This document shows, in pieces, positions 41,294 to 60,802 of a DNA stretch of 64,000 nucleotides; the first letter of the stretch is position 1, and every line of letters begins with the position of its first letter. Position numbers and translations under genes: made by a program. The stretch is taken from contig CAXXYE010000010.1 in NCBI GenBank assembly GCA_963674865.2, forward strand, positions 41,076 to 105,075, in the 5' to 3' direction. This DNA is from Candidatus Hydrogenedentota bacterium (GTDB taxonomy: Bacteria > Hydrogenedentota > Hydrogenedentia > Hydrogenedentales > SLHB01). The notes under the pieces are model-generated. The model had not been told where the DNA came from. It searched no databases and saw only the letters and a list, made by a program, of their open reading frames with translations.

Positions 41294-43363
41294 CTATTCA
41301 CTCCCGTTTGACGGGGTTTCCCCCCATTTTGGCTCCAGTTCCAGAAACCTAGTGTGTATCCCGCGCAAGACTCTCAGGATGATCACTTCGGATTGCGCCT
41401 CCGCGATATCCTTCATCAAAGACTTCAAGGCCTTTACATCTTCAACGGGCGTTCCATTCACCTCAAGGATCAGGTCGCCCGGATTCAAGAATCCAAGAGC
41501 CGCCCACCCTCCGGGCTCAATCCGTTCGACGAGGACTCCACGCTGCTGTTCCGACCATTTCTCCTTGGCCTTGTCGAAGAAGGCGACATTGCGTGCCGTG
41601 AACTCACAGTTGTTGTCGCGGTACTTGGCCATCTCCCGACTCAGCTTCGGAGCACGGGCCAGTTCGACATTGATTTCAGACTCCTGATCTCCCCGCAGCA
41701 CCGTCAACGACACCATGCTGCCAACTCTGTATTGGCGGATGACCGCCTCCAGTTCCTCATAGTCCTCCGGAGCGGACGCCTCCAAGGGCTCGCCGTCAAC
41801 GGCGAGTATGTAATCCCCCACGCGCAGTCCCGCCGCCTCGGCGGCGCTTCCCGAAAAGACCTGAGTCACACGGAAGCCGGACAGCTCCGGACGCCCCAAT
41901 TGCTCCGCGATATCCCGCGTCAGAACCTGAGACTGGACAGGCAACCAGGCCTTCTTCACCTCAAGCCCGGGATCTTCGAGTTCCTTGATTCCCACTTTAA
42001 CCACGGTGACGTACTGCTCCGTCTTGCGCTCGAATCCAACAAGTACGGGGACAGGATCGGTTTGTCCTGTGACAACTTCGGCCGTCACGCGGCGCAACGC
42101 CTCGGCGTTCTTCACGGATTCACCGTTGACGCTGACAAGGACGTCGTCGTCGAGGATGCGAGGCTTTGCGTCGTCGGCCGGTCCTCCCGGGCGGATTGAG
42201 GTAATCAGCACGCCGTCCTCGTTGTCCCGCTTCATCTGCCTGGCGAGGACAAAGGAAAGGTTCCGTGCCGTGACGCCCCATTCCCTGAATTCGTGCTGCC
42301 TTGGCAGGACACGCTCCCGGGCCGTGGGCTTCACGGTGAGGGTGGTCTCTTGTTCATCCCGAAGAACGACCGCCTTGATTTCGGTGTTGAGGGGGAGTTT
42401 GGAGGTCATCTGGTTGAGGGCCGGAAGTTGCTCCAGAAACCGGACGTCTACTTCCGCTTCGTCCAGACGCACAAGAATATCGCCAGGCTTGAATCCGGCG
42501 TCCGCGGCCGGGGAGTCCTCCAGCGTACCGCTAACCAGCACGCCGCGGTCGGTCGCGCCATGCTTGAGGCGGGGCTGCACTTCGAGGCCAAGCCAACTTC
42601 GGCTTACTTCACCGGTGGCGATTAGCTCGTCGGCCACTGCCTTGGCTAGGTTTCCCGGGATGGCGCCGCCCAAACCGATGCTAATCTCATTGATTCCGAT
42701 GATCTCGCCGTCGAGATTCACAAGCGGCCCGCCGGAGTTTCCGGGATATATGGCGGCGTCATGGCCGATCCAGCGAACAAGCGCTCCCACCCGCTCGCCT
42801 TCCTGGGTGATGCCGCCCCACTGGCTCATCCATTGAGGAAGCACCAGCTCAGTATTGCTGACTATTCCGAGGGTGACGGATTGCGAAAGAGACATGGGGC
42901 TGCCCATGGCAAGAACCTGTTGACCAACTTCCACGCTGGACGAATCCCCAAAACCCGCCGTGGGGAAAGCACGACCCTCTTCCCCGTGCAACTTGATGAC
43001 CGCCACATCGGTGAGTGGATCTCGCCCGATGAGTTCCGCCTCCACCTCTTCCTTTGTAGACAGAGTGCAAAGCAAGCGTGTCGCACGACCCGCGACATGG
43101 TGATTTGTGATGACGTGCCCTTCGGGCGTCACGATCACGCCGCTCCCCGAACTCTCGCGCTTCAGTTCGCGCCCTTCACTGTAGCGCGTCGAGACCACCT
43201 CGATCCGTACCAGCGCCGGCTTCACCTTGTCGACGGCTCGGTCAACGGAGGTCCGAAGGGGCGCGGGAACTTCTTCAGAGGGGGCCGCGTGCGCATGCCA
43301 CATCGCGACGACTGTAAAGGCAACCATGCAAGCCAACAGTATACGAACACGACAGAATGCCAT
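41294..43363 (-). CDS. HtrA/DegP-family serine protease with four PDZ domains
   Basis: A signal peptide is followed by VITNHHVAG, DVAVIKL and GNSGGPLVN. Four PDZ-like repeats follow, each with a G-D/GD-I/V-L pattern. Confidence 0.85.
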   Translation of the reverse strand: MAFCRVRILLACMVAFTVVAMWHAHAAPSEEVPAPLRTSVDRAVDKVKPALVRIEVVSTRYSEGRELKRESSGSGVIVTPEGHVITNHHVAGRATRLLCTLSTKEEVEAELIGRDPLTDVAVIKLHGEEGRAFPTAGFGDSSSVEVGQQVLAMGSPMSLSQSVTLGIVSNTELVLPQWMSQWGGITQEGERVGALVRWIGHDAAIYPGNSGGPLVNLDGEIIGINEISIGLGGAIPGNLAKAVADELIATGEVSRSWLGLEVQPRLKHGATDRGVLVSGTLEDSPAADAGFKPGDILVRLDEAEVDVRFLEQLPALNQMTSKLPLNTEIKAVVLRDEQETTLTVKPTARERVLPRQHEFREWGVTARNLSFVLARQMKRDNEDGVLITSIRPGGPADDAKPRILDDDVLVSVNGESVKNAEALRRVTAEVVTGQTDPVPVLVGFERKTEQYVTVVKVGIKELEDPGLEVKKAWLPVQSQVLTRDIAEQLGRPELSGFRVTQVFSGSAAEAAGLRVGDYILAVDGEPLEASAPEDYEELEAVIRQYRVGSMVSLTVLRGDQESEINVELARAPKLSREMAKYRDNNCEFTARNVAFFDKAKEKWSEQQRGVLVERIEPGGWAALGFLNPGDLILEVNGTPVEDVKALKSLMKDIAEAQSEVIILRVLRGIHTRFLELEPKWGETPSNGSE

Positions 43364-43472
43364 ATTGTCCCCTTTCTTCGGCTGACTCGAGGCAGGAACG
43401 CTACAAGACCACGTGAGCTGTATCGGTCGCCGCTACGCCCCACACAACCGACCTTCGCCCTGCGCCGCGCCG

Positions 43473-43665
43473 CCTAGCCCGCCTTTCTCACAGCCGCACA
43501 ACGAGACTGCACGTATGTCATGCGGAACGGGCGTATCGCCTCATAAGCCTGCCACTGGCGAGTAGGCAGAGCGTCCTGCGGTTTCTTCGACCCTTGTCAT
43601 CACCAAGCCCGTTTCAATTGAACAATAGGTGAGAAAAGCAAGCCGAAGACAACAACGTGTGAGAC
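43473..43665 (-). ncRNA. conserved structured element, copy A (leader of the HtrA operon); family unknown
   Basis: It is roughly 65-70 percent identical by eye to 57061..57252 on the opposite strand. The two share helices: 43484-43491/43629-43636, 43494-43498/43521-43525 and 43526-43532/43607-43613. It lies directly downstream of the minus-strand promoter at 43687..43715. Strand was assigned from that promoter. Confidence 0.5.
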
Positions 43666-43686
43666 ATCCCGCCTTAGCGTTCTCCG

Positions 43687-43715
43687 ATTATGGCCACAGT
43701 CTAGGTTTGTGTCAA
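43687..43715 (-). promoter_or_regulatory. sigma70-like promoter, TTGACA-17-CATAAT
   Basis: On the minus strand the -35 hexamer is at 43715..43710 and the -10 hexamer at 43692..43687. The predicted start is about 15 nt before element copy A and about 320 nt before the HtrA ATG. Confidence 0.55.
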
Positions 43716-43801: not shown

Positions 43802-43830
43802 TTGACTAACTACGCCTCTTCTGCTACACT
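43802..43830 (+). promoter_or_regulatory. sigma70-like promoter, TTGACT-17-TACACT
   Basis: It is divergent from the HtrA promoter and drives the non-coding unit that ends at the terminator at 44078. Confidence 0.55.
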
Positions 43831-43836
43831 TTCGCG

Positions 43837-44078
43837 AGGACCATCAGCGACCATTTGAATAAGGTTTTCCCTGCTGTGTTCGACACGGGCGGAAACATTG
43901 TACCTTAGTGTTTGAACTGGGAGCCCAATATTCGCTGTGGCCAACGGCACGCCGCTCCGAGCGGACGTCGGAAGGCTACCATGAGGGCACCCCCTTGGTG
44001 TTAAGGTTCAAACAGTTTCCACCCAACGGCATGATGCGGGGAGCTTACATAGCGGGATGCCTTGTCCCGCTTTTTTTT
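43837..44078 (+). ncRNA. candidate small RNA with a 6S-RNA-like rod structure
   Basis: This is a promoter-to-terminator unit without a credible ORF. The nested helices are 43869-74/44036-41, 43887-96/44015-24, 43909-17/44006-14, 43919-26/43985-92, 43937-42/43974-79 and 43949-56/43960-68. Internal loops lie in between, and the core is about 173 nt. Confidence 0.45.
44051..44078 (+). terminator. rho-independent terminator
   Basis: The stem is GCGGGA/TCCCGC with a 7-nt loop, followed by T8. Confidence 0.7.
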
Positions 44079-56543: not shown

Positions 56544-56942
56544 GTGGCAGAGACGACTCAAGAAGTGGTTGCGATAGGGCGACGGAAGGCGGCGCGGGCT
56601 CGTGTGCGAATGAAGCCGGGCACTGGTCAGGTCACTGTAAACGGGCGGCCGCTGAATGAATACCTTGCCCGTGAGGTGTTGGTGATGATGGCGCTGCAGC
56701 CGTTCCAGATCACCGGCAATGAGGGCCGGTTCGATATACGGGCCCTGTGCGATGGCGGCGGTCTTGCCGGTCAGGCCGGCGCCCTTCGACTGGGCATTGC
56801 ACGCGCTTTGCTCAAGACCGACGCGAACTGCCGTGTGGCGTTGCGTCGCGCCGGTTTGCTTACGCGTGACGCGCGCGAAGTCGAACGCAAGAAGTACGGC
56901 CAGCCGGGCGCACGGAAACGGTTCCAGTTCTCGAAGCGCTAG
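56544..56942 (+). CDS. rpsI: 30S ribosomal protein S9
   Basis: GRRKAARARV ... GGGLAGQAGALRLGIARAL ... RKKYGQPGARKRFQFSKR is present. Confidence 0.9.
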   Translation: MAETTQEVVAIGRRKAARARVRMKPGTGQVTVNGRPLNEYLAREVLVMMALQPFQITGNEGRFDIRALCDGGGLAGQAGALRLGIARALLKTDANCRVALRRAGLLTRDAREVERKKYGQPGARKRFQFSKR

Positions 56943-56966: not shown

Positions 56967-57030
56967 AAGCCTCCCGTATTCTGCGGGAGGCTTGTCTTTT
57001 TGAGGCGCCCGGTATCACCGGGCGCTTCAT
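56967..57030 (+). terminator. tandem terminator hairpins after rpsI
   Basis: The first is AAGCCTCCCG/CGGGAGGCTT (10 bp) followed by GTCTTTTT. The second is GCGCCCGG/CCGGGCGC (8 bp) followed by a T-rich tail. Confidence 0.7.
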
Positions 57031-57060
57031 CTTTCTCGCCTCCCTCAATTGGTCCGAACG

Positions 57061-57252
57061 GCTCACGCGTGGTTGTCTGCGGCCCACTTCTCTCACCCGT
57101 CATTCAATGGGAACGGGCCTGGGCATGACAAGCAGGCGAGGAAGTTGTGAGACACCATGCAGGCTCTCACGGCTGGATGGGTGACACGGGATGCCCGTTC
57201 CGCATGACGTTGGTGCGGTCTCGCTTTGCGGCTGTGAGAGAAGCGGGTTAGG
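57061..57252 (+). ncRNA. conserved structured element, copy B (paralog of 43473..43665)
   Basis: It has the same conserved blocks and helices as copy A: 57087-57096/57234-57243 (10 bp), 57110-57118/57193-57201 and 57200-57204/57227-57231. I found no convincing promoter of its own. Confidence 0.45.
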
Positions 57253-57427
57253 TGCGCTTTGACGAATCCGCGCCAAACCTCAGTTTGGCGTAGTGACGGA
57301 TTTCCGTCACTACAGACGTTCTTCTGAGGTGACGGCGCTGCGCCTAAGTTGTTTATTAAGAATGACTTACATTATACGCGCAAGGCGGCATCCTTTATGC
57401 ATATCTGTTGACAAGAGGTGATGTAAG

Positions 57428-57640
57428 ATGAAACGAATTGACAACAGACATCCTGGCTTATTGGAAGCCTCCTCGGTGCCGAGGGACGGCTCAAAGGGGC
57501 CGCTTGCCGGAGCATATCCCGATGTGTCTCTGGCTCCGGAGCTTCGTCTCCTGATCCGGCAGCAGAACCTGCAGCTGTTTATGGAATGGGTACAGAAGTA
57601 CGGTTCGTGGCGCGATTTCCTGCGTGCACACACTGCGTAG
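57428..57640 (+). CDS. hypothetical 70-aa protein (weak call)
   Basis: AGGTGA lies 6 nt upstream of the ATG. I recognise no family, and the ORF sits in a gene-poor region downstream of element copy B. Confidence 0.3.
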   Translation: MKRIDNRHPGLLEASSVPRDGSKGPLAGAYPDVSLAPELRLLIRQQNLQLFMEWVQKYGSWRDFLRAHTA

Positions 57641-57805
57641 TGGTTCTGGAAGCGCGCGGCATGAAACCGGAAGCATAAGAGCGGTATCCTGCCGTCACGG
57701 ACCTCGCTGCCGGGCCATATTGGGAAGCGTAGCCTCCCATAGGACGAGGGCGCGACGCGAACTCAACCGGCTCCGAGCCGACTTCTCACTATCAGGCGCC
57801 GTGCC

Positions 57806-58102
57806 TCAGGCTATCTGCCGCCGCATAGCTTCAAGGGCCTTAAGAATGCGATCCTCGTCGAGAGGCCCGACCTCCATGGCCGTTATCGGTAGTTGGAGAT
57901 CTTCGACAAGGGTCTTGATCTCGGATGCCTCCTCACGCCATCGATCCAGATGGAGGTGTTCGCCGAGGGGATCGCCAAAGGCGCCTTTTCCTTGCAGAGC
58001 CGAGATCTCTACTGCATCGTATCCGGCCCATTTCAAGTATTGCATGGCCGTGGGGAGGTTCTCCCCGCCAAGTACCACCGTGTTTGCACCAATTCTAATC
58101 AT
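57806..58102 (-). pseudogene. truncated sugar-phosphate isomerase/epimerase (xylose-isomerase-like TIM barrel) fragment
   Basis: MIRIGANTVVLGG ... YLKWAGYDAVEISAL ... EIKTLVEDLQLPITAM matches only the first roughly 100 aa of a family that is usually about 270 aa. GAGGAG lies 5 nt upstream of the ATG. No continuation appears in any frame. Confidence 0.5.
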
Positions 58103-58782
58103 GACGTCTCCTCTACCGGCGTTCACAAGGCCGCTCAGGGCGCGGCGCTACAGCCACTCGGTTCACGCCCTCTCAATTGAGCCGCCGGATCATCTGCCAC
58201 GCGGCCGCGCTCGGAACCGGCCTCGTGTTTTCGGATCTGCGGCCCCGACAGATTAGTCTGTCGACAACGCGAATACACTAAGGGCCAATGGCTTGGGCGC
58301 GGCCCCATAGTGTGCCCGGCCCTGGGCGTGCGTTGCGGTTGATATCGGACACCCAGCTCAGGATAGTGACACTTCTTGAGTTGAGGGTTCAAACGTGGGA
58401 ATTGTATCGTGTATCTGCGCTCAATAATGCCGGGAGCGGATGCGGAAGCGTCGAAGTGCACCGGCTTCAGGTTGGACGCGTTATTGACGCCGGATGTCGC
58501 GTTCGAGAAGTACTCACCTCGCCGGGAGCACGGCACATGGCAGGGCGGTGACAGCATGAGTACCTGGGAGCGTTCATTCGTGCTTGGATCCTTTTAGGCG
58601 CTGTCCGGTTGTCCAACGTCTCTGGCCCCATGAAAAGGGTGTCCGCATGTCCTTTGAGAAATCCTCCTTGCGGCTTTTCGCGCGTACGTGTTTAGGCTGG
58701 CCACTTCCACGTGATACAGTAAGGATGTAGTGTGCATAATCCGGAGGTTGTTTGGAGCCTGTGCCAGAGGCATTCGGACAAC

Positions 58783-60066: not shown

Positions 60067-60518
60067 GTGTTGAGAGTATTCGTGTGCGCGTTGCGGCGAT
60101 TATTGTGCGTGATGATTCGATTCTGCTGGTGCGGCACCAGCGCGACGACAAGACGTATTGGCTGCTGCCGGGGGGCGGGATCGAATACGGCGAATCAGCC
60201 GGGGATGCCCTCGTGCGCGAGTTGATGGAAGAGGCGAGCGTCACCATCCGGATTAAGGATCTTGTGTATGTGAACGATAGCGTTCCCCCGGATAGGCACC
60301 GGCATGTCCTCAATCTGTGTTTCACGGCGGAGATCATTGACGGTGAGGTCAGGCCACAGCCTGAGGGGCGGCTGGTCGACGTTGCCTTTGTTCCGATTGC
60401 GCAGCTTGGCGAACTGACGTTTTTCCCTGATATCCGGGATGCGCTTCTGCCGGCGCTTGCGTCCGGCTTCCCCGAGGGCCGGGCCACCTATCTGGGCAAT
60501 CGCTGGGAAGATATCTAG
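60063..60518 (+). CDS. NUDIX hydrolase
   Basis: The Nudix box is GGGIEYGESAGDALVRELMEEASV, and the start overlaps hflX as ATGA. Confidence 0.85.
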   Translation: MSVESIRVRVAAIIVRDDSILLVRHQRDDKTYWLLPGGGIEYGESAGDALVRELMEEASVTIRIKDLVYVNDSVPPDRHRHVLNLCFTAEIIDGEVRPQPEGRLVDVAFVPIAQLGELTFFPDIRDALLPALASGFPEGRATYLGNRWEDI

Positions 60519-60802
60519 CCTGCCGACAACTACTTGCGAGCTATTCGGACTGAGCGCCGGCACCGGACAGAATCTCTCTCCGCTCATTCACAAACGAGCG
60601 AATTGTGAAGCCCCGCGCGTTTTCTTGGGATTCCCCGTGTGCTACCATCTAGCTTGGAGCGGGTTGAGCACAGCGCGTGCGGCCCGCATTTCAGCGAAAG
60701 GCGGGGCCCAAGCGTCTTGGATATTGACACAGAAAGACTTACACGCGCTATGCGGCGACGGCCCGGCCGGGCCGCGCCTCCGGCCCGAGCAGGTGGTTTG
60801 TG

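Follow-up and report, generated by a model that had tools for sequence, protein, structure and literature searches.

We report a non-coding element of about 270 nucleotides (nt) that is present in two copies in a 64,000-nt stretch of the genome of a Candidatus Hydrogenedentota bacterium (contig CAXXYE010000010.1, positions 41,076 to 105,075; this whole stretch is called the window, and coordinates refer to it). Protein matches likewise assign the window to this phylum. Copy A precedes an HtrA-like protease gene, and copy B follows the ribosomal protein genes rplM-rpsI. Our leading explanation, which we hold tentatively, is that a module rich in inverted repeats and specific to this lineage has been copied into the genome at two or more intergenic sites. 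At one of them, copy A would have come to separate the sigma-70-type HtrA promoter, which is conserved, from the start codon of HtrA. It would make up most of the transcribed 5' untranslated region (UTR), unusually long at ~316 nt, of the operon for HtrA, a pseudo-protease and a sulfatase. Once transcribed, the inverted repeats would fold into a long closing helix of 16 bp (P1) with two side helices. If this folding has an effect, it would most likely be an incidental one, on the stability of the mRNA or on the initiation of translation, and the predicted pairing of a block at the 5' end of the element, GUCUUCGGC, with GCCGAAGA next to the Shine-Dalgarno (SD) sequence could be one route. The element would then act as ERIC, BOX and Correia repeats do when they are co-transcribed with a gene, and not through dedicated sensing of a ligand or of stress.

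Several lines of evidence lead us to favour this explanation. The element is missing from the corresponding sites of relatives, the excess distance between promoter and ATG is close to its length, and both sites are breakpoints of synteny. Consensus-fold scores are similar on the two strands, folding energies are at the level of shuffled sequences, the fold common to both copies is not thermodynamically favoured, and copy B has no promoter. The element is also the only dispersed repeat in the window, is neither coding nor a piece of a pseudogene, and belongs to no Rfam family. Finally, its termini are complementary (helix P0), and an SD-proximal pairing is predicted in copy A.

A pair of diverged, non-coding repeats

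The first-pass annotation of this DNA had proposed diverged paralogs on opposite strands, at 43473-43665 and 57061-57252. The blastn alignment bears this out: 43473-43663 of the plus strand (copy A) aligns with 57252-57062 of the minus strand (copy B) over 193 nt, at 71% identity (E 2.3e-19), and every conserved block listed in that annotation is found in the alignment. The homology is wider than had been stated, extending over at least ~43400-43672 in copy A and ~57054-57335 in copy B. Past the core lies a poorly conserved linker of ~35 nt, followed by a hairpin module that is also homologous. Because the homology continues through the linker to this module, the whole units are delimited as follows.

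43400-43672, minus strand: copy A, whole unit (core 43473-43665; A/B alignment; blastn E 2e-19; 241.5 bits with the covariance model (CM) R1, built from the two copies); its strand was assigned from the promoter and the G-U bias described below
57054-57335, plus strand: copy B, whole unit (core 57061-57252; 237.5 bits with R1; alignment)

The two copies are mutually inverted, with 13.4 kb between them, and in a repeat search of the window they were the sole significant dispersed repeat. No third copy was found in the window by blastn with either copy, or in ~9 kb of additional sequence past the window end (locus L047 of a second assembly). A CM of both copies had been suggested earlier as a means to find further members; when R1 was run on the window, L047 and the fetched loci, it recovered copies A and B and no additional homologue. 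A CM match at 60480-60549 (14.7 bits) covers only the 5' flank block, lies opposite the 3' end of a NUDIX gene and was judged to be due to chance.

The second assembly of the same species (L043, L044, L047), reached via a cluster mate of the window's RpsI, is 99.4% identical. Copy A is unchanged there and copy B has 2 differences, so that both copies are intact in two independent assemblies. Being nearly identical, the sister assembly adds no information on covariation.

The element is non-coding, in agreement with the earlier remark that no open reading frame (ORF) is conserved. Each of the six frames has 2-4 synonymous versus 11-16 non-synonymous codon differences, most frames contain stops, and no start codon is common to both copies in any of the six. 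A coding or leader-peptide function was rejected on these grounds; the concatenated six-frame translation of both copies, a proxy for spurious ORFs annotated on related elements, also had no match at E<=10 among 5.8 billion proteins. The comparison with Rfam, which the first-pass annotation had recommended, gave no match on the element when the whole window was scanned with Rfam 15 at the gathering threshold. With both copies searched at E<=10, only noise was returned (HIV-1_SD, 15.9 bits, inside the central arm, and terminator-like matches beside copy B). A hammerhead-like core was considered and rejected, as GUGAUGA is present in copy A only (GCAUGA in copy B) and an Rfam hammerhead match is absent. 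The element is real and unclassified; known from two sequences that have no relatives, it does not rise above a candidate RNA class.

Copy A separates a conserved promoter from the HtrA gene

Copy A sits in an intergenic region of 1.15 kb. To its left, on the minus strand, lie the HtrA-like gene (41294-43363) and then genes of a Trypsin_2 pseudo-protease and a sulfatase. On the other side of the element is the promoter that had been proposed in the first-pass annotation.

43687-43715, minus strand: HtrA promoter TTGACA-17-CATAAT (11/12 consensus positions; ~10-15 nt upstream of the element)

This promoter was corroborated by comparison with six loci of Hydrogenedentota carrying HtrA orthologues (L034, L035, L036, L039, L041 and L042; HtrA ~62-64% identical). 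The motif cTTGACA-N17-CATAAT is present upstream of HtrA in four of them (L034, L035, L036 and L042), which indicates that it is the ancestral HtrA promoter. Since copy A lies just downstream of it, the minus strand of the element is very probably transcribed as part of a 5' UTR of ~316 nt. The leader of roughly 320 nt postulated earlier agrees with this placement of the promoter. The distance from the -10 hexamer to the HtrA ATG (43363) is 323 nt in the window, compared with 63, 118, 126 and 176 nt in the four loci, and the excess is about as long as the element. Judged from these distances, ~200-270 nt seem to have been added between promoter and gene in the form of the element.

The operon downstream of the promoter is kept in the orthologous loci wherever the contig reaches far enough, and the element was not found in any of the six by nhmmer or by the CM; it is therefore not a conserved HtrA leader. 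In the closest RpsI relative (L045, 82% identity) it was not found after rpsI either, where an unrelated spacer of 420 nt is present. The outer flanks of both copies coincide with synteny breakpoints in relatives. The absence of the element from both orthologous contexts amounts to a presence/absence polymorphism, in relatives too distant for a base-by-base alignment of empty sites. Wider scans for the pattern of conserved blocks gave 30 matches in GTDB genomes, all due to chance and devoid of blastn similarity, 3 chance matches in JGI metagenomes and, in IMG/VR, 10 chance matches for a 16-mer and 0 for a second pattern. The plasmid and phage collections gave no blastn match.

In the predicted fold of the full leader, the 5' block GUCUUCGGC of copy A is paired with GCCGAAGA just upstream of the SD sequence, with a probability of 0.86-0.99. 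An influence of copy A on HtrA expression, if there is one, may be exerted through this contact.

Some features of the HtrA loci deserve mention. The HtrA proteins of the loci with the conserved promoter are triple-PDZ proteins, only ~62-63% identical, and the promoter is often followed by CC/CGG. A gene for an extracytoplasmic function (ECF) sigma factor lies directly upstream of HtrA in L039 and L042, and L042 also has an anti-sigma (zf-HC2/FecR) gene. In the long-read sister assembly (L044, 3466-6419) HtrA is split into fragments of 171, 344 and 137 amino acids (aa) and DnaE2 into two, probably by indel errors; as a result of this fragmentation the HtrA of this close relative was missed by the protein search.

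Copy B has no promoter of its own

Copy B comes after rplM-rpsI, with the end of rpsI at 56942, and after a pair of terminator hairpins (56967-57029). The promoter scan found no promoter in the orientation equivalent to that of copy A, and copy B is probably not expressed on its own. It precedes an ORF of 70 aa (57428-57640, plus strand) with a strong Shine-Dalgarno sequence, GAGGTGAT, which is called as a gene in the sister assembly too. No homologue of this ORF besides itself was found among 1.84 billion representative proteins. It may encode an orphan small protein, or else the ORF is spurious. A decayed HtrA paralogue beside copy B was sought with tblastn, which found none.

Helices common to the two copies

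On the strand that is minus for copy A and plus for copy B (A-minus/B-plus), the copies have a common layout: helix P1, a junction of 15 nt with conserved UUCAAU, helix P2 enclosing a variable arm, and helix P3. The parts are listed below, for copy A in the order of the minus-strand RNA.

43643-43666, minus strand: copy A, conserved 5' block CUCACACGUUGUUGUCUUCGG; its partners are the 3' hairpin region (P0) or, in copy A, GCCGAAGA near the HtrA SD sequence
43629-43644, minus strand: copy A, 5' strand of P1, GGCUUGCUUUUCUCAC; predicted 16-bp helix with 43476-43491, including 4 G-U pairs in the minus-strand RNA
43604-43613, minus strand: copy A, 5' strand of P2, AACGGGCUUG; pairs with 43526-43532 and 43536-43538
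43539-43603, minus strand: copy A, variable arm with its own hairpin CUGCC..GGCAG; 52% identity to copy B (scan P<0.001)
43526-43538, minus strand: copy A, 3' strand of P2, CGA..GCCCGUU; one compensatory pair (U-A to C-G) in the inner extension
43494-43525, minus strand: copy A, P3 hairpin CCGCA...UGCGG with conserved loop sequence; pair probability 0.74 in copy A and 0.0 in copy B
43476-43491, minus strand: copy A, 3' strand of P1, GUGAGAAAGGCGGGCU; pairing with 43629-43644, holds the compensatory U-A to C-G
43420-43436, minus strand: copy A, gene-proximal hairpin GUAGCGG/CCGAUAC (alignment; the fold differs from that of copy B)
57081-57096/57234-57249, 57112-57121/57187-57199 and 57200-57231, plus strand: copy B, P1, P2 and P3, respectively (alignment, inverted-repeat search)
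57290-57335, plus strand: copy B, hairpin GUAGUGACGG/CCGUCACUAC and alternative CCGUCACUACAGA/UCUGAGGUGACGG (inverted-repeat search, suboptimal folds)

The pairings noticed in the first-pass annotation (TTTCTCAC/GTGAGAAA, CCGCA/TGCGG and AACGGGC/GCCCGTT) are all found in both copies. The compensatory change from T-A to C-G that it reported in the closing helix is real (pair 38-189), and by direct reading each copy keeps a hairpin of its own in the variable centre, as had been said. Its description of the gene-proximal hairpin as conserved in shape and not in sequence does not hold: the sequence is partly kept (GTAG..CGG/CCG..CTAC and a flanking GCC), and it is the folds that differ. A conserved terminator/antiterminator was considered for this region, in which copy B has two mutually exclusive hairpins; copy A folds otherwise, and neither is followed by a U tract. 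The 5' block pairs with the hairpin region in an interrupted outer helix, P0, of 11 pairs in both copies, by which the termini of the element are complementary. The second possible GTGAGA partner mentioned earlier also exists; in copy A it lies within a 14-nt direct repeat (43621-43634 and 43651-43664). The two units of this repeat, AACAATAGGTGAGA and AACAACGTGTGAGA, are 30 nt apart, and the analogous pair in copy B, CTCACGCGTGGTTG and CTCACGGCTGGATG on the plus strand, is 104 nt apart.

In P1-P3, 61/62 helix cells are paired, with 2 compensatory pairs, 4 one-sided G-U changes and 1 break, and P0 contributes 22/22. The total of 83/84 on the A-minus/B-plus strand compares with 73/84 on the opposite one. 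Changes affect 9/62 helix nucleotides, compared with ~30% of positions overall, and nearly all of them preserve pairing. Covariation drawn from two sequences is not significant, as 111/500 shuffles reach the observed level. The ratio of G-U to A-C combinations on the A-minus/B-plus strand is 10 to 1, or ~10 to 4 with the helices extended in a strand-neutral way, and the choice of strand from it is confounded by the G-richness of that strand; the excess mildly favours the orientation assumed in the first-pass annotation.

Single-sequence folding energies are not better than those of shuffled sequences for either copy or strand (z -0.07, -0.55, 0.00 and -1.33). The common three-way-junction fold lies above the minimum free energy (MFE) by 5.1 kcal/mol in copy A and 12.7 kcal/mol in copy B, and its pair probabilities are low. 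In copy B those of P1-P3 are <=0.06, and an internal UCUCAC competes there for the 3' strand of P1. Consensus folding (alifold with column shuffling) gave z of -2.4 for A-minus/B-plus and -1.9 for A-plus/B-minus, marginal on both strands. Since these scores are alike on the two strands, an inverted repeat at the DNA level accounts for them as well as an RNA does. The signal for shared inverted repeats is modest and strand-agnostic.

The element as a possible copied repeat module

The closest likeness is to ERIC/IRU of enterobacteria, BOX and RUP of Streptococcus pneumoniae and the Correia repeats of Neisseria. These elements are non-coding, intergenic, 100-300 nt long and rich in inverted repeats, and they fold when transcribed. 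A locus that carries one of them may have orthologues in relatives that do not, and where they come to lie between a promoter and its gene they become part of the UTR. The element resembles them in these traits, and no sequence similarity to any of them was found. It differs in other respects: a genome carries tens to hundreds of copies of each such family, with recognisable termini (terminal inverted repeats (TIRs), and a TA duplication for Correia), whereas here two copies are seen, 29% diverged, with no target duplication and with a terminal complementarity that is interrupted (11 bp).

Several observations weigh against a copied repeat module. Only 2 copies are present in the ~73 kb of genome read (window and L047). 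As to the marks of a MITE, a small non-autonomous transposable element, a contiguous TIR of >=9 nt was not found at the termini, and the boundaries of homology are fuzzy. No target-site duplication was seen, nor any direct repeat peculiar to an insertion site; the ACG(T/C)GTGAG-like repeats close to the two termini occur in both copies and are therefore part of the element. No transposase or recombinase gene is nearby. Further, the central arm has 52% identity, compared with ~80% elsewhere (scan statistic P<0.001), and a fast-diverging arm beside kept helices and junctions is a pattern typical of functional RNAs with a variable stem. Despite a divergence of 29%, pairing on one strand is kept in 83/84 helix cells, P0 included, and 3 changes are double-sided. 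Each copy is followed by an ORF, and the relative orientation is the same for both. As to the proposed route of action, a leader of 347 nt would by chance contain about one 8-bp complement, and the SD-proximal pairing is not conserved in copy B.

If the element is simply a co-transcribed repeat, its interest is local: it would show, for an uncultured phylum, that the insertion of non-coding DNA can make the leader of a stress protease three times as long.

Alternative explanations

One possible, though on balance unlikely, alternative is a new cis-regulatory RNA, the function proposed in the first-pass annotation. A three-way junction made of P1, P2 with the variable arm, P3 and the junction TTCAAT.G would sense temperature, a protein or a metabolite, and would control the HtrA operon via alternative CUCAC/GUGAGA pairing and pairing of the 5' block near the SD sequence, with copy B controlling the ORF at 57428. 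Parts of the earlier proposal stand: copy A is promoter-proximal, and the element is non-coding and outside the Rfam families; folding, covariation and conservation in relatives did not support it. The position of copy A 10-15 nt past a conserved promoter, the rate heterogeneity along the element and the preserved pairing keep such a function in contention. In its favour one may count the helices kept in both copies (61/62 cells, P0 22/22), the 10 G-U versus 1 A-C on the A-minus/B-plus strand, the significantly less conserved arm in which each copy nevertheless keeps a hairpin, the alifold z of -2.4, the location of each copy, in the same orientation, before an ORF with a good SD sequence, and the SD-proximal pairing predicted in copy A. 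It is disfavoured because the element is absent from orthologous leaders (0/6 for HtrA, none downstream of rpsI in the closest relative), because the thermodynamics are weak (folding z ~0, a model fold 5 to 13 kcal/mol above the MFE and the low P1-P3 probabilities in copy B) and because copy B is promoterless, with an orphan ORF downstream. Moreover, neither the block pattern (GTDB, JGI, IMG/VR) nor the six-frame protein proxy revealed a homologue, covariation did not reach significance, and the contrast between G-U and A-C drops to ~10 to 4 with unbiased helix extension.

Compared with known riboswitch-type or protein-binding leaders built on three-way junctions, the element has a similar promoter-proximal place in a long 5' UTR, conserved junction nucleotides, a variable arm and alternative pairing partners. 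It differs from them in having no Rfam match at E<=10, no conservation upstream of orthologous genes, no terminator or SD-sequestering platform common to both copies and no significant covariation.

The copies might also be the first two members of an undescribed cis-regulatory RNA, confined to an uncultured Hydrogenedentota lineage and based on a three-way junction with a variable arm. It would gate translation of the HtrA envelope-protease operon through the release or sequestration of the 5' block that pairs next to the SD sequence, and would have spread by duplication as a mobile regulatory module; we regard this as distinctly unlikely. To our knowledge, Hydrogenedentota is a phylum without cultured representatives and without described riboregulators. 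If the structured-RNA interpretation were true, the element would represent a new class of leader RNA in this phylum and would be a hint that regulatory RNA modules may be copied from one locus to another.

The remaining explanations are less likely than either a repeat module or a regulatory RNA. It is improbable that an old segmental duplication, or templated repair, left the two copies behind as a neutral relic without function at either site, with helices simply inherited and blocks surviving by chance. Such an origin would fit the marginal clustering of matches into blocks within the core (P 0.05-0.12 against a model of uniform decay), the missing thermodynamic signal, the absence from relatives and the location of copy B in a 1.7-kb stretch that holds no intact gene and lacks ~527 nt present in the second assembly. 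It is at odds with the significant rate heterogeneity along the element (P<0.001) and with helix changes (9/62 versus ~30% overall) that nearly all preserve pairing. Bacteria normally delete non-functional intergenic DNA quickly, and yet both copies are intact in the two independent assemblies.

It is very improbable that the opposite strand (A-plus/B-minus) is the functional one and encodes a pair of trans-acting small RNAs (sRNAs) with a 5' hairpin, B ending at terminators shared with rpsI and A lying upstream of the 6S RNA gene described below: the two hairpins following B-minus (57029-56967; a short U tail adjoins the second), a perfect TATAAT at 57376-57371 upstream of copy B and one P2 pair that reads G-U here and A-C on the opposite strand (both by direct reading), and the alifold z of -1.9 are countered by fewer paired helix cells (73/84 versus 83/84), by a promoter scan that returned no promoter-like site upstream of either copy on this strand, the TATAAT having no -35 at usable spacing, and by the situation of copy A, only 47 nt from the HtrA start, with no terminator after it.

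Neighbouring genes

The intergenic region of copy A also holds a gene for 6S (SsrS) RNA, which the first-pass annotation had not noticed. It was identified by a full-length match to RF00013 (64.3 bits, E 2e-10), the sole Rfam match in the window at the gathering threshold, and occupies 43865-44046 on the plus strand, 190 nt away from copy A. Its promoter, TTGACT-17-TACACT, is at 43802-43830 and its terminator at 44051-44071; the 6S and HtrA promoters are divergent, ~90 nt apart. Apart from this common intergenic region the element has nothing in common with 6S RNA: it has no match to the 6S model, no blastn similarity to 43865-44046 and no structural similarity. No 6S gene was found nearby in the three HtrA orthologue loci scanned with Rfam (L034-L036).

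Next to copy B, U-rich tails follow each of the tandem GC-rich hairpins (56967-56993 and 57001-57029) on the plus strand. For the first, a short U tail is also present on the minus strand, and this hairpin may be a bidirectional terminator. Below-threshold Rfam matches to rteR and ncS54 at these hairpins were rejected as reflecting merely terminator shape. Further downstream, ~527 nt within an AP_endonuc_2 (xylose-isomerase-like TIM barrel) gene are missing from the window at ~57827-57835 relative to L043 (11292-11819). The gene is intact in L043 (231 aa), and the window retains only a 106-aa ORF (57806-58126, minus strand); it is this loss that leaves 57030-58730 without an intact recognisable gene. 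The difference could be a real deletion or a difference between the assemblies. The 13.4 kb between the two copies contain the 6S RNA gene, pilM/pilO, a secretin gene, a DNA_pol3_alpha / IMS-family polymerase pair, a response-regulator-GGDEF gene and rplM-rpsI.

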